Shown: positions 1 to 6,845 of the stretch, piece by piece
Numbering within the stretch: position 1 is the stretch's first letter
Layout of the letters: the number at the start of each line of letters is the position of its first letter
Virus record (IMG/VR): IMGVR_UViG_3300028829_005090
Location: 1-6,845 of that record
DNA: 6,845 nt
Origin: a virus
Direction: 5' to 3' (one strand)
Notes under the pieces: model-generated
Told to the model about the DNA's origin: nothing
What the model saw: only the letters and a program-made list of their open reading frames with translations
Databases searched by the model: none
Translations under genes and position numbers: made by a program

Positions 1-144
1 ATTGCTGGCGAATGTGTTTCAACTCCTGCACCAGAAGAAAGTAACGAAAATTCAACCGTTAGAATAAAGACTCCTACCGTAACCGAGGGCTTTTATACTT
101 CCCTTTATCCAGACGGTTTTGACGGTCTTTTGAATAGTTCAATC
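1..144. repeat. Terminal redundancy, copy A (identical to 6702-6845)
   Basis: Direct base-by-base comparison of both window ends shows 144/144 identity. Confidence 0.97.
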
Positions 145-363
145 GACGGTTTTAAGTCAGGGCCTTTTTATGAAGGTATGCAACAATTTTCTATTTCCAT
201 TGGCGGTGGTTCTGTACCTAGTTGGAATCTTTGTTTCGATGTAGGTATTGCCAACCTTGGCTGTCATGACCTTTCCGTTCCTGCTTACGTTTGGGACTTT
301 ATTAAAGCTTGTTTACTTATTTGCTCTGCTTTTCTTTGTCGTGCAATAATTTTTGGGGGTTAA
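1..363 (+). CDS. pIII-like minor coat/adsorption protein, C-terminal 120 codons (continuation of 5634-6845 across the circular junction)
   Basis: Position 1 is in phase with the ORF that starts at 5634 (6702 and 1 are both codon starts). It ends ...VWDFIKACLLICSAFLCRAIIFGG-TAA, a C-terminal hydrophobic anchor as in Ff g3p. The 130-363 ORF in the track is only the tail of this gene. Confidence 0.8.
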   Translation: MAGECVSTPAPEESNENSTVRIKTPTVTEGFYTSLYPDGFDGLLNSSIDGFKSGPFYEGMQQFSISIGGGSVPSWNLCFDVGIANLGCHDLSVPAYVWDFIKACLLICSAFLCRAIIFGG

Positions 364-366
364 GTT

Positions 367-681
367 ATGGATTTATTAAATCAAATTTGGAATGACTTTG
401 TTGATTTTTGTTATGCCATTGTCATCTCATTAGTTGAAATGTTAAAGGATTTATTTTTTTGGCTTTATGAAACGGTTACAAATGCTTTGATGTTGCTTGT
501 TAACTCTTTGTCTGATGTATTCAGCCTTTTTGATATCACTAGTTATTTAACTGGTTTACCCGCAGACACTCTTAACATTATGGGCCTAATAGGCTTAGAT
601 ACTATTTCATCAATGATTGTTGCGTCTCTTTTGGTTCGTCTTGTTCTCCAACTAATTCCTTTTGTTCGTTTAGGCTCATAG
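367..681 (+). CDS. pVI-like small hydrophobic minor coat protein (104 aa)
   Basis: The ATG lies 4 nt after the pIII-like stop, with SD GGGGG at 355-359. The protein is largely hydrophobic with several membrane-like segments. It sits between the pIII-like and pI-like genes, exactly as Ff gene VI does (112 aa). Confidence 0.6.
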   Translation: MDLLNQIWNDFVDFCYAIVISLVEMLKDLFFWLYETVTNALMLLVNSLSDVFSLFDITSYLTGLPADTLNIMGLIGLDTISSMIVASLLVRLVLQLIPFVRLGS

Positions 682-689
682 GGGTAATT

Positions 690-1877
690 ATGTCTATTTA
701 TTTAATTTTAGGTCGACCAGGTGGCGGCAAAAGTTATGAAGCCACTGTCTATCATGCACTTAAAGCTTTAAAAGATGGTCGCAGAGTTATAACTAACCTT
801 CCTTTAACTGTTTCCGTATTTGAGAAGGTTTTTGGAGAGGAATTTATTGCTTCACACCTAGAGATAAGAACCGAGGCCATTGGCCCACCTCCTAACATCA
901 AATCCAATGGCATTAACTGGAAGCGTTCACCCTCTGAAAAACTTATTCGAAAGCCATTTTCTACCGTTGAATGCTATCAAGATGATTGGAGGCACCCTGA
1001 CACCGGCATCGGTGCTTTGTTTATCGTTGATGAATGTCACTTTGTTTTGCCTCGTGCTAGCACTCCTGTTGAGGTTTCTAACTGGTATTCGATGCATAGG
1101 CACCATGGCTATGACATTCTTTTAATCTCACAAGGCTATAAAAAAATTAATGCTGACATTATCGACATGGTCGAGTTAGTTTATTTTCTTCAAAAAAACA
1201 AAATGTTAGGCGATGAAGGTTCTTATACAAGGAAAATTAAAGATGGTGTTCGTGGAGCTATTGTCAATGCTGATACTCGAAAGTATCAAAAAGAGTATTT
1301 TAAATATTATAAAAGTCATACAGCCTCTAATTCATCTGTTACTGAAGCTCATGCTCAAGATATTCGCGGCTTTTGGCAAGGTGGTCTTATTCGTTCTTCT
1401 ATTGGGATTTTTGTCTTGGTTGGTATTGGCATTGTCTACAACCTAACAAATATGAAAGATGAGCCTGTTTCCCCTACAGTTGAGCCTATAAAAGAGGTTA
1501 GCTATTCTAGACAACAAGTCCTTGATAGAGCTGATTCTAATAAAAGCACTGTTTTAGCTCCTCCTCCTGTTGTCCCTGTCGCTACTGTAGCTGAGACTAA
1601 AAAAGAAGTTGAAATTAAGGATCATCCTTTTTCTAAATTTGAATTTATAATTAAAGGTCGTTTCTTTATGAATGATGTGCAAGATTTTTCTTTTGTGGCT
1701 ACCCAGAACGGCCAACCGCTTTTCTATGTGACTATGCGTGATTTTTATATGGCAGGTTATGGCCTAGAAGTTCTCGGTGATTGTGCTATAAAAATTACCT
1801 ACAAAGACTTTTATTCTTCTTTTATTAATTGTGGCCTTCCTTCCGTTTCAATGACTGGTACTCAACCAATTAATTAA
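690..1877 (+). CDS. Zot/pI-family P-loop NTPase, filamentous phage assembly protein (395 aa)
   Basis: Walker A GRPGGGKS is encoded at 711-734 at the extreme N-terminus. Walker B LFIVDECH has its DE at 1029-1034. There is a single central TM segment (SSIGIFVLVGIGIVYNL) followed by a roughly 140-aa C-terminal domain. This is the Zot (PF05707) architecture. SD AGGGG is at 679-683. Confidence 0.9.
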   Translation: MSIYLILGRPGGGKSYEATVYHALKALKDGRRVITNLPLTVSVFEKVFGEEFIASHLEIRTEAIGPPPNIKSNGINWKRSPSEKLIRKPFSTVECYQDDWRHPDTGIGALFIVDECHFVLPRASTPVEVSNWYSMHRHHGYDILLISQGYKKINADIIDMVELVYFLQKNKMLGDEGSYTRKIKDGVRGAIVNADTRKYQKEYFKYYKSHTASNSSVTEAHAQDIRGFWQGGLIRSSIGIFVLVGIGIVYNLTNMKDEPVSPTVEPIKEVSYSRQQVLDRADSNKSTVLAPPPVVPVATVAETKKEVEIKDHPFSKFEFIIKGRFFMNDVQDFSFVATQNGQPLFYVTMRDFYMAGYGLEVLGDCAIKITYKDFYSSFINCGLPSVSMTGTQPIN

Positions 1878-1887
1878 TAATTATTTG

Positions 1888-1929
1888 CGCTTATTTGGCC
1901 TAAATAGTTGTACTTTAGCCAAATAGGCG
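1888..1929 (+). repeat. Inverted repeat / ssDNA hairpin directly after the pI-like stop (12-bp stem, 18-nt loop)
   Basis: CGCTTATTTGGC (1888-1899) pairs with GCCAAATAGGCG (1918-1929), with one G-T pair. An alternative inner hairpin TATTT-GGCCT-AAATA is possible. No T-run follows, so it is not a classical terminator. Confidence 0.6.
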
Positions 1930-1935
1930 TATAAT
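1908..1935 (+). promoter_or_regulatory. Sigma70-like promoter candidate for the 2060-2818 cassette
   Basis: TTGTAC (1908-1913), a 16-nt spacer, then TATAAT (1930-1935). It is oriented toward the ATG at 2060 and overlaps the loop and 3' arm of the hairpin. Confidence 0.45.
1913..1934. repeat. Left copy of a split direct repeat bracketing the accessory cassette
   Basis: CTTTAGCC-AAAT-AGGCGTATAA here, versus CTTTAGCC-CGCGGC-AGGCGTATAA at 2813-2836. Identical blocks of 8 and 10 nt, exactly 900 bp apart. Confidence 0.6.
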
Positions 1936-2059
1936 AGAATTCAGAAGTTAAGGGAATGGCAGTCAAACGACAGACTTAAACAAGTCGGAGCAAGGGAAAT
2001 AACCCAGATTAAAAATTACTTCTACTAACTATTAACTAATTAATTAAAAGGAATATCAG

Positions 2060-2221
2060 ATGACTACATTAGAAGATTTAAAACATACGCACATGACGTC
2101 TCTTCAATTGAAACGTAAGCTTGAAAACGTTCGTAATGATAAGACTCTTTCAACAAGTGAAAAGATAGCTAAGAAGCGCGCTTTATGGTCTGAATTTGAA
2201 TCTAAATTTCTTGAGGGTTAA
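2060..2221 (+). CDS. Hypothetical 53-aa charged, helical protein (below the ORF-track size cut-off)
   Basis: My own translation is MTTLEDLKHTHMTSLQLKRKLENVRNDKTLSTSEKIAKKRALWSEFESKFLEG. SD AAGGA (2048-2052) lies 7 nt before the ATG. The stop TAA (2219-2221) is 3 nt before the next ATG, and that gene's SD GAGGG lies inside this ORF's 3' end. This is an operon-like arrangement. Confidence 0.55.
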   Translation: MTTLEDLKHTHMTSLQLKRKLENVRNDKTLSTSEKIAKKRALWSEFESKFLEG

Positions 2222-2224
2222 CTT

Positions 2225-2818
2225 ATGATAGGTAAAACATTTTCTGAATCTTGTAAGTTAATGAATATCTCTAGAGTTCAGTTATCAGATGACACTGGCG
2301 TTCCTATTAAGACACTGGGTACATGGTATAAGACTAAGCCAAAGCTAATGTCAAAGCTCTTTGATTCTTATTCAACAGTTTCTAACTCAGAGCTTAATAA
2401 TGCCCTTTCTGTTATAGAGAGATTAAAAATAACAATCGATACTTTAACAAGAATAAAAGATGATAGATTTAAGACTTACGAGCCTATTGAGCCTATTGAG
2501 CCTATTGAGCCTATTGAGCCTATTGAGCCTATTGAGCTTATTGAGCCTATTGATCCTATTTTTAGTGAATACTTTAAGCAGATTATATTTTTTGTTAAGA
2601 ATTCGATTGTTAAAAGGTGTAATCTTAGTTGTTTAGGTTTCAAGCCCATATCTGTTTCGCCTAACGGTTCTTTCACACCAGAGAGCAGGAATGACTTACG
2701 AACGTACATCAACTGGCTTATTAATCTTAGTAGTGTTGATATCCCCGATTATCAAGATGGAGATCCTACAATAGAGGAAATCATTGATTATGTTGAATCT
2801 TCTAATTCTTTTCTTTAG
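2225..2818 (+). CDS. Putative DNA-binding protein: N-terminal helix-turn-helix, (EPI)n repeat linker, unknown C-terminal domain (197 aa)
   Basis: The N-terminal segment ISRVQLSDDTGVPIKTLGTWYK fits the classic HTH pattern (hydrophobic, G, V/I-s, T-h, W). The central part is YEPIEPIEPIEPIEPIEPIELIEPIDPIF. I do not recognise the C-terminal 85 aa. Confidence 0.75.
   Translation: MIGKTFSESCKLMNISRVQLSDDTGVPIKTLGTWYKTKPKLMSKLFDSYSTVSNSELNNALSVIERLKITIDTLTRIKDDRFKTYEPIEPIEPIEPIEPIEPIELIEPIDPIFSEYFKQIIFFVKNSIVKRCNLSCLGFKPISVSPNGSFTPESRNDLRTYINWLINLSSVDIPDYQDGDPTIEEIIDYVESSNSFL
2480..2560 (+). repeat. Tandem repeat, 9 units of 9 bp (GAGCCTATT), in frame within 2225-2818
   Basis: There are six perfect GAGCCTATT units (2480-2533), then GAGCTTATT, GAGCCTATT and GATCCTATT. 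They encode EPI x6, ELI, EPI, DPI. Confidence 0.97.
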
Positions 2819-2836
2819 CCCGCGGCAGGCGTATAA
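2813..2836. repeat. Right copy of the split direct repeat bracketing the accessory cassette
   Basis: CTTTAGCC-CGCGGC-AGGCGTATAA. It includes the TAG stop (2816-2818) of the 197-aa ORF and matches 1913-1934. Confidence 0.6.
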
Positions 2837-2956
2837 AACAAGCCCAGCGCAGCGCTACTCTAAGGCCAATAGATATTTGTATATTTTAACAAGACCCGAT
2901 CATCATAAATAAGACTTTTACCGCCACTTGTACCAAACCGTCTTTTGATTTTAGGG

Positions 2957-2984
2957 TTTTAATCTTTTAATCTTTTAATCTTTT
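2957..2984 (+). repeat. Iteron-like tandem repeat TTTTAATC x3 (plus a partial fourth unit) upstream of rep
   Basis: TTTTAATC occurs at 2957-2964, 2965-2972 and 2973-2980, followed by TTTT. A degenerate relative, CTTTTGATTTTAGGG, lies just upstream (2942-2956). Confidence 0.85.
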
Positions 2985-2998
2985 TGTAGTATATTTAC

Positions 2999-3018
2999 TT
3001 TTTTATAGATATAAAAAA
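2999..3018. repeat. 20-bp AT-only palindrome TTTTTTATA-GA-TATAAAAAA
   Basis: The 9-bp arms at 2999-3007 and 3010-3018 are exact reverse complements. It lies about 75 bp upstream of the rep ATG and directly after the iteron-like repeats. Confidence 0.8.
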
Positions 3019-3092
3019 AGCGTTTAGCAGTCACCACAACCGCCAAACGCCACCATAAACATTCAAGCCACCAAGCTTACAAGGTTTACAAT

Positions 3093-4448
3093 ATGAATAC
3101 TAATTTACAAACAATTAACAGTCAAGCTCACACATTGGGAGGGGCCCCACGTAGTGGGGAGGGCTCCCAATTTGGTGGGCTTCTTGTTACTGTTACCAAA
3201 AACTCTTCCGCCCCTTTAAAATCAAACACTTGGAGAGCACCGTTTTGTCATCCTAATACTGGTGAAGAGGTCTTTTTTGAGCAACCTAAAAAGGTTCAAA
3301 CAGATTATAGGGCTGATAGGTGGGCTTTTAAATCCGTTGTAAATAAAGTACTACCATTCTCTAGAACTGCCAAGTGTATGAGATTTAGGTCATTTACTGA
3401 CGATGGATTAAGTTTGATTAAAATCATGAAGAGTAAAGACAATAAAGCTTTCTATTCTGGCTTGATGGCTTGCGGTAGTGTTTGGAATTGTCCTATTTGC
3501 GCGGCTAAGATTTCAGAGAAAAGACGTATTGAATTAAAAGATGCTTTGGATGTTGCTAAAGATAACAATTTTAAAACTTTCTTGGTTACTCTTACCGTTC
3601 CCCATGGCATCGGTGACGATTTAAAAGATTTACGTTTAAGAATTAGGAAAGCACAAGGTAAATTATCATCTGGTAGGGCATCTATTAAAAATCAACTTAA
3701 AAATCTTGATTTGGGATATACCCAGCACGGCTTTATTCGTGTTCTCGAAGTCACGCACGGACAAAAAAACGGCTTTCATCCTCATTTGCACATTTTAGTT
3801 TTTACGAGTCAATCGGTAACATCTGAACTTCTCGATTCTGTTTATACTTCAAGTTGGCTCAATGCTTGCGTTTCTTCTGGTTTGCCTTTGCCAACTGAAA
3901 AACATGGTTGCCATGTTCAAGATGGTTCAGTTGCCTCTGACTATGTAACAAAATGGGGCATTGAGGATGAAATGACTAAATCTAATTCTAAAGTCTCGCG
4001 TTCTAATAAAGGTGTTACCCCATTCGGTCTATTAAAATGCATTATTGACGGTGACGATGAATTTTATACACCAGAAAAAGCTACTAAACTTTTCTCCGTT
4101 TATTCAAAATGCTTTAAGGGTGCCCGTCAATTGCATTGGTCAGTTGGACTTAGAAAGCTATTGTCACAAGAAAACGAAGTATCAGACCAAGAATTGGTTG
4201 ATTCTAAAGATGATGAAGCCTTTACCATGGGAGTTCTTAGTTTTGAGCAATGGCAAGTCATACGTAGAAAGAAACTAGAATCTAGCATTTTAACTTTGGT
4301 GGAAACTAGTTCTCTTGATGATTTAAAAAGTTTTATTTTTAACTCTACAAATTTAATCCTTATGTCTCATAAAAACGAACTCGATGCACATAATATTGTT
4401 TCCCCTTTCCCAGAGGACCCCAATTATTACAATCGTTATTTAGAATGA
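3093..4448 (+). CDS. rep: Rolling-circle replication initiator, HUH endonuclease of the pC194/pUB110 Rep_1 type (451 aa)
   Basis: There is a Cys-rich motif CGSVWNCPICAAK (3471-3500 covers C..C). Motif 1 is FLVTLTVPH. The HUH motif HPHLHILVF is at 3777-3803. The Y-x-x-K motif DYVTKW has its Tyr codon at 3942-3944. Order and spacing match Rep_1 (PF01446) plasmid initiators. The stop is TGA at 4446-4448. Confidence 0.85.
   Translation: MNTNLQTINSQAHTLGGAPRSGEGSQFGGLLVTVTKNSSAPLKSNTWRAPFCHPNTGEEVFFEQPKKVQTDYRADRWAFKSVVNKVLPFSRTAKCMRFRSFTDDGLSLIKIMKSKDNKAFYSGLMACGSVWNCPICAAKISEKRRIELKDALDVAKDNNFKTFLVTLTVPHGIGDDLKDLRLRIRKAQGKLSSGRASIKNQLKNLDLGYTQHGFIRVLEVTHGQKNGFHPHLHILVFTSQSVTSELLDSVYTSSWLNACVSSGLPLPTEKHGCHVQDGSVASDYVTKWGIEDEMTKSNSKVSRSNKGVTPFGLLKCIIDGDDEFYTPEKATKLFSVYSKCFKGARQLHWSVGLRKLLSQENEVSDQELVDSKDDEAFTMGVLSFEQWQVIRRKKLESSILTLVETSSLDDLKSFIFNSTNLILMSHKNELDAHNIVSPFPEDPNYYNRYLE
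3134..3171 (+). repeat. GC-rich imperfect hairpin embedded in the 5' coding region of rep
   Basis: ATTGGGAG-GGG-CCCCAC-GTA-GTGGGG-AGGG-CTCCCAAT has an outer 8-bp stem, a G-rich internal loop, an inner 6-bp stem and a 3-nt loop. It also contains GGGGCCCC. It stands out strongly against the AT-rich background and encodes the Gly-rich peptide LGGAPRSGEGSQF. Confidence 0.8.
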
Positions 4449-4687
4449 TCTCTTTTCATTTTCTCTTCTATTGCAATACTCGCGAACTGGCTACTAGTCA
4501 CCACAGTATCTTTACAGTGACTTTTTAGCCTCTCTTTTGTTACATCAAATATTCTTATTGTTGATGTATCTTTGTTTTTCTCAAGATCTTCTATTCTCAC
4601 TGTTTTTCTGAATCCCTCCTCTTTTATTATCTCTCTCGCTACTTCTTTGGCTATTTCTTTTATATTTCTTTTTTCTTCTTCTTGCAT
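4436..4687 (-). CDS. Small charged protein, putative transcriptional regulator (possible ribbon-helix-helix at the C-terminus), 83 aa
   Basis: This is the only convincing minus-strand ORF. I place the start at the ATG at 4687, not the track's GTG at 4696, because that GTG is part of the SD AAGGTGA, which lies 5 nt upstream of the ATG. The segment TIRIFDVTKERLKSHCKDTVVTSSQFASIAIEEKMKR fits a beta-strand, helix, helix pattern. The 3' end overlaps the rep 3' end by 13 nt. Confidence 0.55.
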   Translation of the reverse strand: MQEEEKRNIKEIAKEVAREIIKEEGFRKTVRIEDLEKNKDTSTIRIFDVTKERLKSHCKDTVVTSSQFASIAIEEKMKRDHSK

Positions 4688-4707
4688 TTTATTCACCTTT
4701 TGTTTAT

Positions 4708-4742
4708 TGTGTCGTTATGTGTCGCATTGTGTCACAGTGTGA
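4708..4742. promoter_or_regulatory. Operator-like array: TGTGTC x3 at exact 10-bp spacing, ending in the palindrome TCACA-G-TGTGA
   Basis: TGTGTC occurs at 4708-4713, 4718-4723 and 4728-4733. TCACAGTGTGA is at 4732-4742. The array lies in the 96-bp gap between the minus-strand regulator start (4687) and the ATG at 4784. Confidence 0.55.
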
Positions 4743-4783
4743 TTAATCTTTTCTTACATTTTTTATAATATGAGGCTTTATTT

Positions 4784-5083
4784 ATGAAAGTACAAATGCA
4801 AGTTCTATCAATTGGCTCGGGTACTTTAGAAACTGGCGGCGAATGGGCTAATGCTCACGTTCTTGATAGCAACCAAGTTGAGTTTGACGATGGTACTAGA
4901 CAGGAAAAAGGCTGCAAAGTTGCAAAAATCAAAGTCGATTCCTCTAATGATAACCTTGTTGCTAAACGTTTTTTTAGAGAAAACTTTCCCGCTACTTTTA
5001 CTTTAGAAGTAGATACAAGCGTTAAAAAAGGCGCAATGGAAGTCGTTATCAAAGATTTTTTATCAAACATTAAAACGGCTTAA
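4784..5083 (+). CDS. Putative ssDNA-binding protein (pV-like by size and position), 99 aa
   Basis: SD GAGG (4772-4775) lies 8 nt before the ATG. It is the first plus-strand gene after rep and before the coat genes, and its length is close to Ff gVp (87 aa). I recognise no direct motif, so the assignment rests on position only. Confidence 0.45.
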   Translation: MKVQMQVLSIGSGTLETGGEWANAHVLDSNQVEFDDGTRQEKGCKVAKIKVDSSNDNLVAKRFFRENFPATFTLEVDTSVKKGAMEVVIKDFLSNIKTA

Positions 5084-5086
5084 AAA

Positions 5087-5329
5087 ATGGCTGTTTGTAC
5101 TGAATTTGTCAATGGTTACTTAATGCAAAGCTCTGTTAGCGTTGCAAATTGTACTAATTACATTCTTGTAACTGCTGACGAATACAACTCTTTTGCGAAT
5201 GTTTTCGCATTAGATTCCTCGACAATTACCCTTTGCATTACTTTTGGCTTTGGCATGGTTGTCTCTACTTACTTTTTAGCTTATCCAATAATGATGGCTC
5301 AAAAGATTATTAAACTAATAGGAAAATAA
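5087..5329 (+). CDS. Hypothetical small membrane protein (80 aa), possible minor virion or assembly component
   Basis: The ATG is 4 nt after the upstream stop, suggesting coupling. It has a C-terminal TM-like segment ITLCITFGFGMVVSTYFLAYPIMMA followed by the basic tail QKIIKLIGK. There is no clear SD. Confidence 0.45.
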   Translation: MAVCTEFVNGYLMQSSVSVANCTNYILVTADEYNSFANVFALDSSTITLCITFGFGMVVSTYFLAYPIMMAQKIIKLIGK

Positions 5330-5333
5330 AATT

Positions 5334-5474
5334 ATGGATGCAATTTTAGCAGGTGTGGATATTGGTGCGGTTGCCGCTTGGGTTGGAACAATCGGTCTTG
5401 CAATCGTTGGTATTGCTATGGCTTTTCGTGCAATCTTTTTATCAAAATCCGCTGTTCGTATGGTCGGTAAATAA
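5334..5474 (+). CDS. Major coat protein (pVIII-like), 46 aa, no obvious cleavable leader
   Basis: My own translation is MDAILAGVDIGAVAAWVGTIGLAIVGIAMAFRAIFLSKSAVRMVGK. It has an acidic N-terminus (D2, D9), a hydrophobic Gly/Ala-rich core and a basic C-terminus (R32, K38, R42, K46). This is the canonical inovirus coat layout, and the size is close to the leaderless Pf3 coat (44 aa). SD AGGAAA is at 5320-5325, and a strong terminator follows. Confidence 0.8.
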   Translation: MDAILAGVDIGAVAAWVGTIGLAIVGIAMAFRAIFLSKSAVRMVGK

Positions 5475-5491
5475 TCCAAACGTTCAGTTTT

Positions 5492-5528
5492 AAAGGGGCT
5501 TTTTAGCTCCTTTTTTTTCTTTTTTTTT
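5492..5528 (+). terminator. Rho-independent terminator after the major coat gene
   Basis: The stem is AAAGGGGCT (5492-5500) paired with AGCTCCTTT (5505-5513), with one G-U pair. The loop is TTTT, and a T-run follows (T8-C-T9 spans 5511-5528). Confidence 0.8.
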
Positions 5529-5539
5529 GGGGGTTTATT

Positions 5540-5641
5540 ATGGTTACTGGTCTAGTTAGTGCTTTTTGCTATACGTGCTTTGTAATGCTTGGCGCTTTGA
5601 TGGGCGATGTTCTTGTTAAAGGGATACATAAACATGCTTAA
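5540..5641 (+). CDS. 33-aa hydrophobic protein, pVII/pIX-like minor coat candidate
   Basis: My own translation is MVTGLVSAFCYTCFVMLGALMGDVLVKGIHKHA. SD GGGGG (5529-5533) lies 6 nt before the ATG. Its stop overlaps the pIII-like start (ATGCTTAA, 5634-5641). The size matches Ff pVII (33 aa) and pIX (32 aa). Confidence 0.5.
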   Translation: MVTGLVSAFCYTCFVMLGALMGDVLVKGIHKHA

Positions 5642-6845
5642 ATTTATTTTTCTTTTTATACCTGCTTTTTTCATTTTTTCCACTTCCTCCTTTGCCGATG
5701 AAATTCCTGCAACTTTAAATCATTTTCCTACTGGTACATGTAAACCTTATCAAAACTTAGGTGACTTTTCTTATAATGTCACTTTTGAAGCTTGTTTTTC
5801 TGAAAAATCCGCTCTTGCCGCCCAAAGAGGTCGCAATGTTGTCCCTGTTTATCCTACATTGGAATCTGACGGCACTTATTCAAATGGTGGCGGTTATTAT
5901 TATAATGACGGCTTAAAATTTACCGCTTTTAGTTTTACAACTACTAATGTCGTTAGCTCTTATTCTTGTGATGACCCTGCTTATCCTGAGATGTCTCAAG
6001 ATGGAAAAAGCTGCTTAAATAGTTTCGGTGGCGCTTCTTCTGAGCTTGACCAATTTATAGAGAATAAAGCTGATTTAGAGATTGCCTTTGATGCTTTAGA
6101 TACAAATGTCATTGATCCTAACTTAGAAGCTATGTCTAATATTAATAATTCTATTGACGAACAACTCGATGCTACAGCCCAAGCAATGGCAAACGTTGAT
6201 AATATTACTCAAATTAATGATAATGTTAAAACTTTGTCTGATTTATCCCCTGATAATTCTTCTTTGCAATCTCTTTCTAATATTGCCAATTCTATTGATA
6301 TTGAGAGCCAAGCACTTCTATCAGATTCTTTTGAAAATGTCACAGGAATGATTAATCAACGTTCAGATGCTACAGCTATTTTTAATTCTTCTAATCAATT
6401 TGCCGGATTTGCTCAAGATGGAATCGAATATTATTATGGACTTGGAGAGCAACTTTATACAGCAACTAGCCAGTCTCAAGTAGATAGCATTTCCGATAGT
6501 ATGGCTCAAGCTATGAGCGAAATTAATTCTAATATTGAACAATCCTATACAACTTCATCTGAAATAAATAACTCGATTAATATTATTAATTCTTTAGCTA
6601 CTGAAAATAATAACAACATTGCACAAATTTCTAATAACAATCAAACAGCTTTAAATATTAATAGTGAATCCTCCAATGCTTCTTCGAACGGTGAGACTTG
6701 TATTGCTGGCGAATGTGTTTCAACTCCTGCACCAGAAGAAAGTAACGAAAATTCAACCGTTAGAATAAAGACTCCTACCGTAACCGAGGGCTTTTATACT
6801 TCCCTTTATCCAGACGGTTTTGACGGTCTTTTGAATAGTTCAATC
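5634..6845 (+). CDS. pIII-like minor coat/adsorption protein, N-terminal 404 codons; runs off the window end and continues at 1-363 (476 aa in total on the circle)
   Basis: Hand translation found no stop from 5634 to 6845. The signal peptide is MLKFIFLFIPAFFIFSTSSFA, followed by DE. A 4-Cys N-terminal domain is followed by a long Asn/Ser/Asp/Ile-rich central region. The C-terminal anchor is encoded at 1-363. The ORF is missing from the track because it has no stop inside the window. Confidence 0.8.
   Translation, partial: MLKFIFLFIPAFFIFSTSSFADEIPATLNHFPTGTCKPYQNLGDFSYNVTFEACFSEKSALAAQRGRNVVPVYPTLESDGTYSNGGGYYYNDGLKFTAFSFTTTNVVSSYSCDDPAYPEMSQDGKSCLNSFGGASSELDQFIENKADLEIAFDALDTNVIDPNLEAMSNINNSIDEQLDATAQAMANVDNITQINDNVKTLSDLSPDNSSLQSLSNIANSIDIESQALLSDSFENVTGMINQRSDATAIFNSSNQFAGFAQDGIEYYYGLGEQLYTATSQSQVDSISDSMAQAMSEINSNIEQSYTTSSEINNSINIINSLATENNNNIAQISNNNQTALNINSESSNASSNGETCIAGECVSTPAPEESNENSTVRIKTPTVTEGFYTSLYPDGFDGLLNSSI
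6702..6845. repeat. Terminal redundancy, copy B (identical to 1-144)
   Basis: Direct comparison shows 144/144 identity. Confidence 0.97.

Follow-up and report, generated by a model that had tools for sequence, protein, structure and literature searches.

Here we analyse a 6,845-nt stretch of viral DNA (IMG/VR record IMGVR_UViG_3300028829_005090, positions 1 to 6,845; hereafter the window), and in particular the slot between its phage assembly gene and its replication gene. The window holds a circular inovirus genome of ~6701 nt, its first 144 nt recurring at the window end, and its gene order, based on open reading frame (ORF) calls together with Pfam and PHROG matches, is that of a typical secretin-less inovirus. 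The slot is bordered on the left by a pI/Zot-like assembly ATPase gene (690-1877, + strand; Pfam Zot E=7.5e-28, PHROG 197 E=8e-65) and on the right by a rolling-circle HUH Rep gene of the Rep_1 type (3093-4448, + strand; Pfam Rep_1 E=6.5e-13, PHROG 11698 E=1e-68). Between them, where a first-pass annotation of this inovirus had placed them, lie ORF53 (2060-2221, + strand) and ORF197 (2225-2818, + strand), the latter encoding a protein with a predicted helix-turn-helix (HTH); the order pI, ORF53, ORF197, rep is that of an inovirus regulatory module and recurs in the related loci L010 and L012. The same annotation had proposed that a split direct repeat brackets these two genes, and that recombination between its copies would cleanly excise them as a cargo cassette. 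The repeat is present exactly as described, with copy 1, CTTTAGCC-AAAT-AGGCGTATAA, at 1913-1934 and copy 2, CTTTAGCC-CGCGGC-AGGCGTATAA, at 2813-2836, both on the + strand and 900 bp apart from start to start, with matched blocks of 8+10 bases and spacers of 4 and 6 nt.

The left edge of the slot carries an imperfect palindrome of 42 bp (1888-1929), whose 19-nt arms (1888-1906 and 1911-1929) are 79% complementary around the centre GTTG and which reads as an operator-like site or as a hairpin in single-stranded DNA (ssDNA). A sigma-70-like promoter, TTGTAC-16 nt-TATAAT (1908-1935, + strand), is predicted from the sequence, its -35 box falling at the palindrome centre and its -10 box abutting the 3′ arm, and copy 1 of the split repeat is made up of this 3′ arm and all but the last base of the -10 box TATAAT. 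L007 and L013 retain the strings GTTGTAC and GCGTATAAT, and L010 and L013 have TATAATAGAATTCAGAAGTTAAGG in identical form. The promoter is followed by a conserved leader, or 5′ untranslated region, of 124 nt (1936-2059, + strand) ahead of the two-gene operon, which is 91.9% identical to L013, at least as high as the identity of ORF53 in the same pair (88.5%), and ~83% identical to L135 over 1918-2045, where it recurs ahead of a different first gene. L135 pairs a window-like leader with a first ORF whose start is like that of L010. The leader may be a regulatory RNA leader; neither it nor any other part of the window gave a match in Rfam.

When folded as ssDNA, the palindrome reaches z=-4.6 in the window (0/200 shuffles as good) and z=-6.7 in L007, and the version in L010 folds weakly (z=-1.25). 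In an alignment with L013, L010 and L007, 3 of the 14 stem pairs show compensatory change, with both sides altered and pairing kept. At the corresponding position with respect to its own HTH gene, L008 carries a different palindrome. Instead of an operator, the palindrome of the window might be a hairpin that acts in viral ssDNA, perhaps as a minus-strand origin primed by RNA polymerase or as a packaging signal, and its conservation across phage backbones would then mirror host-dependent replication. The long stem with its 4-nt loop, the strong fold z-scores and the presence of the palindrome in phages with unrelated Rep proteins all agree with such a role, as do the compensatory changes, which suit base pairing equally well as a symmetric operator; Ff phages likewise carry hairpins in the intergenic region 3′ of their morphogenesis genes. 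However, the palindrome sits directly upstream of the HTH gene and travels with that gene, its arm sequence follows the type of recognition helix (KTLGTW with arms ..TTTGGC.. in the window and L010, RT[LF]RDW with arms ..TTTCGC.. in L007 and L135), and the fold is weak in L010. We therefore regard a hairpin in place of an operator as unlikely, while noting that the two roles may be compatible, one not excluding the other.

ORF197 is predicted to begin with an Xre/Cro-like HTH (aa 1-47), which leads into a long helix (~aa 39-81); an (EPI)n linker then connects to a helical domain at the C terminus (aa 115-193). Structure prediction, as suggested by the first-pass annotation, gave a confident AlphaFold model for the N-domain (pLDDT 85; helices 6-12, 17-24, 28-37 and 39-80), for which Foldseek ranked nearly exclusively Xre-type proteins at the top, though none significantly (P2 C, EnrR, C.Kpn2I, SinR, HigA and Aca), the P2 C immunity repressor being first with 31% identity over 55 columns. 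The full-length model (pLDDT 68) had no meaningful Foldseek match, and the C-terminal domain, whose helices are predicted with moderate confidence, matched neither a structure nor a PDB sequence. At the sequence level ORF197 reached E=0.016-0.044 against PHROG regulator families, had no NCBIfam match and found nothing below E=0.06 in a PDB profile search. Homology searches with the full-length protein were swamped by low-complexity EPI/EPV matches, and residues 1-84 were used instead; in an exhaustive search of 1.84 billion proteins they recovered 9 cluster representatives with the shared motif ..(T/L)(F/L)S..CK....(I/V)....L....G(V/I)P..TL..W..TKP.L..., making this a very small, unnamed family of HTH regulators. 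The linker is encoded by a 9-nt tandem repeat, GAGCCTATT x 9 (2480-2560, + strand; detected with TRF), which is present nine times here and six times in the ENA contig L001; this contig is the same phage as the window, a repeat shorter by 27 nt being the sole difference. Read as GCCTATTGAGCC, the repeat agrees with the palindrome-arm motif GCYTATTTGGCY at 10/12 positions on the + strand, a match that could be a coincidence or could reflect extra regulator sites inside the regulator's own gene.

ORF53 encodes a small, charged and probably helical protein that is 84% identical in amino acids to ORF54 of L013. The two reading frames differ by 4 synonymous and 8 nonsynonymous codons, a single comparison that does not prove coding, and the counterparts of ORF53 in L010/L007, L012 and L008 are unrelated to it. 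Searches of Pfam, PHROG, NCBIfam, PADLOC and PDB found no match for ORF53 and none above threshold for ORF197, and the view that neither protein is recognisable beyond the HTH is borne out.

Comparison with related loci indicates what is constant in the slot and what varies. Among phages with a related pI protein, L007 (61% identical) has a 72-aa ORF followed by a 123-aa HTH protein, L008 (43%) has a 50-aa ORF, a dif-like site, an 81-aa HTH protein and a 111-aa ORF, and L013 (41%) has the ORF53 homolog followed by a 117-aa membrane ORF. L010 has an unrelated backbone (a short Zot, a Phage_CRI Rep and a GP8 coat protein) and carries a 121-aa ORF and then a 193-aa HTH protein; L012/L136, with an L010-like backbone also unrelated to that of the window, carry a 74-aa ORF and then a 128-aa HTH protein. 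Two short contigs whose backbones are not seen add an 86-aa HTH protein followed by a 127-aa membrane ORF (L135) and a 74-aa HTH protein (L134). The membrane ORFs of L013 (4206-4559) and L135 (421-804) each have one N-terminal hydrophobic helix and may function in exclusion or in host interaction. Where enough of the locus is covered, the HTH gene follows pI/Zot (L007, L008, L010 and L012), and in L010 and L012 it precedes Rep, while the partner ORFs are mostly mutually unrelated, only those of L010 and L007 matching each other. On these comparisons we take it that the slot usually holds the HTH gene and that the genes beside it are interchangeable. The two genes of the window are thus not a fixed pair, as had been supposed, ORF53 having another partner in L013 and the HTH gene having unrelated partners elsewhere; nor does a strain-specific cargo resembling ctxAB fit a gene that usually occupies this slot in relatives and a slot with no toxin match. 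The regulatory role that had also been suggested appears to be the best reading of the module.

A tightly linked HTH gene and small ORF might alternatively form an addiction or counter-defence operon, either a HigBA-like toxin-antitoxin pair or a unit resembling acr-aca, in which the variable small ORFs would be the effectors and the conserved HTH protein their autorepressor. The combination of a promoter with inverted repeats, a non-homologous small ORF, a conserved HTH and tight spacing is what such an operon would look like, HigA and Aca structures are among the weak Foldseek matches, and shuffled toxin-antitoxin partners have been reported in inoviruses (PMC6813254). However, no small ORF in these loci matches a toxin, defence or other family: ORF53 and the partner ORFs of L012, L013 and L008 had no match in Pfam, NCBIfam, PADLOC or PDB, and the partner ORF of L010 had weak matches only, such as PDC-S57 (E=8e-4). 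The gene order in L135, with the HTH gene first and a membrane-protein ORF second, also fits poorly, ORF53 has no sign of purifying selection in the single comparison available, and the Foldseek matches amount to generic HTH similarity. Anti-defence proteins frequently lack detectable homologs, and a missing match is compatible with such a function; on the whole, however, we consider this reading improbable.

The right edge of the slot is formed by two conserved blocks. Copy 2 of the split repeat corresponds to the first 20 nt of a GC-rich block (2817-2907, + strand) that starts with AGCCCGCGGCAGGCG and is 87% identical to L134 over 92 nt, the similarity to L134 beginning exactly at 2817, inside copy 2, and ending at 2907. 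The block core A.CCC..GCAGG is invariant in five loci, and the block can still be recognised in L135 and L007. Over 2812-2837, 24/26 nt are identical to L010, where the sequence encodes ...LKPAAGVL... within the regulator gene, and in L134 the block encodes ...QPAAGELKQA-stop. In the window, the TAG stop of ORF197 (2816-2818) aligns with an AAG (Lys) codon of L010 and is followed in frame by PAAGV-TAA; ORF197 looks like a recently truncated, or read-through, version of a longer ORF. Because regulator ORFs of differing length (74-197 aa) run into the block and end at different points within it, we take it to be conserved as DNA rather than as coding sequence. The second block (2936-2985, + strand) consists of AACCGTCTTTTGA followed by TTTTAATC x 3.5 (2957-2984; detected with TRF) and is 90% identical to L010 over 50 nt, being kept there despite unrelated Rep proteins; AACCGTCTTTT also occurs in L007, and a similar string in L135. 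Since the right-hand blocks travel with the module and not with the type of Rep, a host-dependent role, for example in complementary-strand synthesis, is a reasonable guess; that they serve as recombination anchors is another.

Copy 2 was considered in several other roles. As a rep promoter, TTTTCT-17-TATAAA matches the consensus at 8/12 positions and the L010 block is coding and has TATTAA, which is unconvincing, and a hairpin or terminator was rejected since copy 2 has no structure (ssDNA fold z=+1.35). It could also be a second, auxiliary operator or half-site for ORF197, through which the regulator would act 3′ of its own gene and upstream of rep; looping or a block to read-through are conceivable mechanisms. 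The outer portion of the 3′ palindrome arm (AGGCGT) and the inner one (TTTAGCC) do recur exactly in copy 2, which lies upstream of rep and is kept at the DNA level in translated and untranslated contexts alike. The spacing of the two sub-blocks is nevertheless off by 2 bp, copy 2 has neither a partner arm nor structure, and the right element does not co-vary with the HTH or arm type: L134 and L010 keep AGCCCGCGGCAGGCG, and in L135 and L007, whose arms are TGCG...ACGCG, the right elements resemble that of the window and not their own arms. An auxiliary operator is thus a rather improbable explanation of copy 2.

The pattern of identity between the window and its relatives is that of a mosaic. 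The window and L010 have no detectable similarity in Rep, pI or ssb, yet they share islands of nucleotide identity at 1868-1956 (81%), 2283-2340 (83%), 2812-2837 (24/26, as above) and 2936-2985 (90%). L013, whose pI DNA is ~67% identical in the stretches that align, is 90% identical to the window over 1875-2231, that is, over the promoter and ORF53 only, and this identity ends at the junction of ORF53 and ORF197. The junctions of the mosaic thus fall at the pI stop (~1868-1875), the boundary between ORF53 and ORF197 (~2231), 2817 and ~2985. Further evidence comes from the contig L006, whose pI is 72% identical to that of the window (sample SRR25654137) and whose last 30 nt (5799-5828) are identical to L010 3682-3711, the 31st nucleotide being different, and from L011, a separate 1006-nt contig recovered from that sample and found in three samples in all, which is identical to L010 3719-4724. 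Read on a de Bruijn graph with k=31, in which a contig ends k-1 (30 nt) past the last difference, these contig ends would be the signature of one identical cassette in two unrelated backbones. The shared segment so deduced (L010 3682-4724) has the 5′ palindrome arm at one end, extends 2 nt beyond the regulator stop at the other and contains both copy positions. Taken together, these comparisons point to the slot being a discrete, horizontally exchanged unit with conserved edges, and to that extent the first-pass view of the region as a discrete, undescribed and mobile module stands, since the same flanks and HTH recur in unrelated backbones. In vibrio inoviruses, a regulatory module occupies this region of the genome and is exchanged in blocks with junctions at conserved non-coding sites (PMC3731265), and inoviruses are also reported to shuffle genes within tightly linked pairs, including toxin-antitoxin partners (PMC6813254).

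Given the anatomy, conservation, mosaicism and family distribution observed here, we consider it probable that ~1868-2985 is a swappable regulatory/accessory module of marine inoviruses rather than cargo excised at repeats. The promoter TTGTAC-16-TATAAT within the 42-bp palindrome would drive the leader, ORF53 and ORF197, and ORF197 would be a dimeric Xre/Cro-like HTH protein that binds the palindrome and represses its own promoter, much as phage repressors, C-proteins and Aca proteins repress their own promoters by binding palindromes. The module would be bounded by the palindrome-promoter on the left and by the GC-rich block and the TTTTAATC-repeat block on the right, with the gene content between these edges reshuffled among inoviruses, most likely through ordinary recombination within the conserved edges. 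The split repeat would then be a resemblance of the left element (3′ arm and -10 box) to the first 20 nt of the right element, and its two copies would belong to two different conserved edge elements rather than serve as excision sites. In this model, the activity of the promoter, the binding of the operator and the route of recombination are all inferred from sequence.

Several observations weigh against the model. A consensus promoter scanner did not list 1908-1935, the -35 box matching at only 3/6 positions. The match of ORF197 to Pfam HTH_26 is below threshold (15.2 bits against a cutoff of 22, E=0.025), and the Foldseek matches of its N-domain are not significant (E>=0.9, TM 0.27-0.44). 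The compensatory changes in the palindrome are, as described above, no less suited to a hairpin, and the co-variation of recognition helix and arms comprises two classes only, which linkage could explain. The adjacency of L006 and L011 is deduced from contig ends and not seen in reads. Finally, the resemblance of copy 1 to copy 2 is not fully explained by two unrelated elements, because shuffling of the two flanking intergenic regions alone produced an equally good repeat in just 12/20000 trials (0.06%).

The last of these points requires closer attention to the repeat itself. To assess chance, any pair of split repeats on one strand was scored if it had two exact blocks of >=8 nt, >=18 matched bases, gaps <=8 and a gap difference <=2. 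When the 6701-nt genome was shuffled with dinucleotides preserved, such a repeat arose somewhere in 136/1000 shuffles (14%). A shuffle test for the exact pattern gave 0/200, which is post hoc and says little, and a gapped local alignment of the two flanking regions was no better than shuffles. With these two frequencies in view, we judge the repeat to be real, ordinary for a whole-genome trawl and yet unlikely to be pure chance given its position. That the resemblance is nevertheless a coincidence is possible but doubtful: the whole-genome frequency and the flank alignment are compatible with it, as is the decay of the repeat in relatives, the two elements agreeing at only 13/18 positions in L010 and at fewer in L007 and L135, but the restricted shuffles argue against it, and both halves of the repeat are G+C-rich within a genome of 36% G+C.

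As excision sites the copies fare less well. They do enclose ORF53 and ORF197 only, as had been claimed, but copy 2 is not purely intergenic, covering the TAG stop of ORF197. If the copies were recombination sites, a site-specific recombinase or slippage would excise or exchange the two-gene cassette and leave one hybrid copy. The rarity of the repeat in flank shuffles fits such a role, as do the demonstrable exchange of the slot among phages, the start of the right conserved block within copy 2 and the two true direct dif-like sites around the HTH gene and one ORF in L008. However, the search for cassette-less relatives with a single copy found none (L006, L007, L008, L010, L012, L013 and L135), few relatives existing; the slot is filled in L007, L008, L010, L012, L013 and L135, and by inference in L006. 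In L010, L007 and L012 no repeat between the two flanks exceeds shuffles, and no phage recombinase gene was found in the window with the ORF list and Pfam. The mosaic junctions do not fall at both copies, the right one at 2817 being inside copy 2 and the left ones (~1868-1875 and 2231) not at copy 1, and the segment apparently shared by L010 and L006 holds both copy positions in its interior. The spacers, moreover, differ in length. Clean excision between the copies accordingly finds no counterpart in the relatives, and we consider it very unlikely that they are recombination sites.

Recombination by the host Xer system was a particularly appealing possibility for AGGCGTATAA, given that dif-like sites occur in L008, L012 and L136. 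Scoring was against the gammaproteobacterial dif consensus only, which may not be that of the host. By this measure the window copies are at background (copy 1 7+6/22, copy 2 7+2/22, with an XerC arm of 7/11 and an XerD arm of <=6/11), the sites of L008, L012 and L136 score 17-19/22, and the dif/Xer reading of the window copies was rejected. A strong direct flank repeat was found only in L008 (of L008, L010, L007 and L012), where it consists of genuine dif-like sites of the form ACTGCGCATAA-N6/7-TTATGT... These lie in direct orientation at 2132-2159 (ACTGCGCATAA-TTTATC-TTATGTCATAT) and 2847-2875 (ACTGCGCATAA-TGCACGG-TTATGTTTAAT), have AAAGCTAACTGCGCATAAT in common and bracket the HTH gene and the 111-aa ORF; the bracketed genes could be an Xer-excisable sub-module or mark the boundary of an integrated array. 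L012 and L136 have inverted pairs of dif-like sites ~120 nt apart just after Zot (L012: 2249-2276(+)/~2366-2393(-); L136: 11-38(+)/~129-156(-)). The attP of CTXphi is such an inverted pair of dif-like sites, and the arrangement suggests that L012/L136 integrate via host XerCD; the window phage has no recognisable site of this kind.

A more ambitious reading would make the post-pI slot a dedicated cassette-exchange site of marine filamentous phages, integron-like or acr-aca-like. The left and right (AGCCCGCGGCAGGCG...) elements, which share AGCC-N-AGGCGTATAA, would act as defined recombination points, and small anti-defence, exclusion or toxin candidates would be swapped before or behind an Aca-like HTH autorepressor. 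It is favoured by the apparently identical 1-kb cassette in two backbones from one sample and by the restricted-shuffle p of ~6e-4, but we see it as a long shot.

Elsewhere in the genome, a g3-like gene spans the window ends and is followed by g6 (367-681), and ssb (4784-5083), an 80-aa ORF (5087-5329) and the major coat gene (5334-5474) lie beyond rep. An 86-aa gene on the - strand (4436-4696), with weak RHH_5, RepB-RCR_reg and Arc-like matches that suggest a ribbon-helix-helix (RHH) protein, overlaps the final 13 nt of rep and has a homolog in L006 (52% identical). It faces ssb across a region (4436-4783) holding ATTGTGTCGC x 3.6 at 4706-4741, and probably is a second regulator with predicted iteron-like operators. 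Just upstream of rep, a hairpin at 3019-3051 (GCGTTTAGCAGT / ACCGCCAAACGC) beside an A/T-rich palindrome (2999-3018) is a candidate origin or packaging structure. The string GCTACTCTAA (2856-2865) resembles the nick-site loop of pT181-type rolling-circle origins (CTACTCT/AATAGCC); the resemblance is probably a coincidence, the window Rep being Rep_1-like and not Rep_trans and the string not being conserved in L010/L007.

The window has no nucleotide match in the INPHARED phage collection, and the pI proteins of the closest annotated phages are ~35% identical to its own. Scans of viral contigs found the promoter string in L013 only and gave no matches with pI, Rep, the HTH profile or the two right-block strings, and a scan of genome contigs for the host with pI, a 24-nt promoter string and the HTH profile returned nothing usable. 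A metagenome scan with the 17-mer GCCCGCGGCAGGCGTAT was discarded, all 120 returned loci being chance matches without similarity to the window.

An autoregulated phage repressor module spread by modular recombination is familiar biology; what is new here is the HTH family with its (EPI)n linker, together with the pair of conserved edge elements. On a practical level, a story of repeat-excised cargo is replaced by a testable one, comprising an HTH family, a probable operator and two edge elements, which locate the points of exchange of a 1-kb module between inoviruses whose replication and structural genes are unrelated. Host manipulation or phage-phage interaction are reasonable candidate functions for the variable small ORFs next to the HTH gene, and conserved anchors have been used likewise to find anti-CRISPR genes.

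Among known systems, a close parallel is with the regulatory modules of vibrio inoviruses of the VGJphi/VEJ/VFJphi type, which also lie after the assembly genes and before rep, contain regulators and are exchanged in blocks among phages that are otherwise dissimilar (PMC3731265); L012/L136 and L008 resemble them further in carrying dif-like attP sites in this region. The window differs in that its regulator is on the strand of the structural genes and has no detectable similarity to annotated regulators, that it has no recognisable dif-like site, and that the RHH-like gene on the opposite strand follows rep. The regulator itself compares with Xre/Cro repressors and controllers such as P2 C, 434 Cro, C.Kpn2I and Aca, in which a dimerising helix likewise follows a small HTH bundle at the N terminus (predicted in ORF197) and the gene's own promoter has a palindrome across its -35 and -10 boxes (the promoter being a predicted one here), and which provide the best, though weak, structural matches; ORF197 departs from them in falling below the Pfam threshold, in its unusual (EPI)n linker and in its extra C-terminal helical domain. 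The resemblance to acr-aca and type II toxin-antitoxin operons lies in a conserved HTH beside non-homologous small ORFs and a promoter with inverted repeats, whereas the window module has no effector or toxin homology and its gene order varies among relatives. Xer-dependent elements such as IMEX and pdif modules also have short repeated flanking sites, as L008 does with its two direct dif-like sites, but the window copies are not dif-like, lack an XerD arm and score at background. Finally, the window genes sit directly downstream of zot/pI, as ctxAB of CTXphi sits immediately downstream of zot; ctxAB, however, is a lineage-specific toxin, whereas the HTH gene is the usual occupant of its slot, which contains nothing toxin-like.

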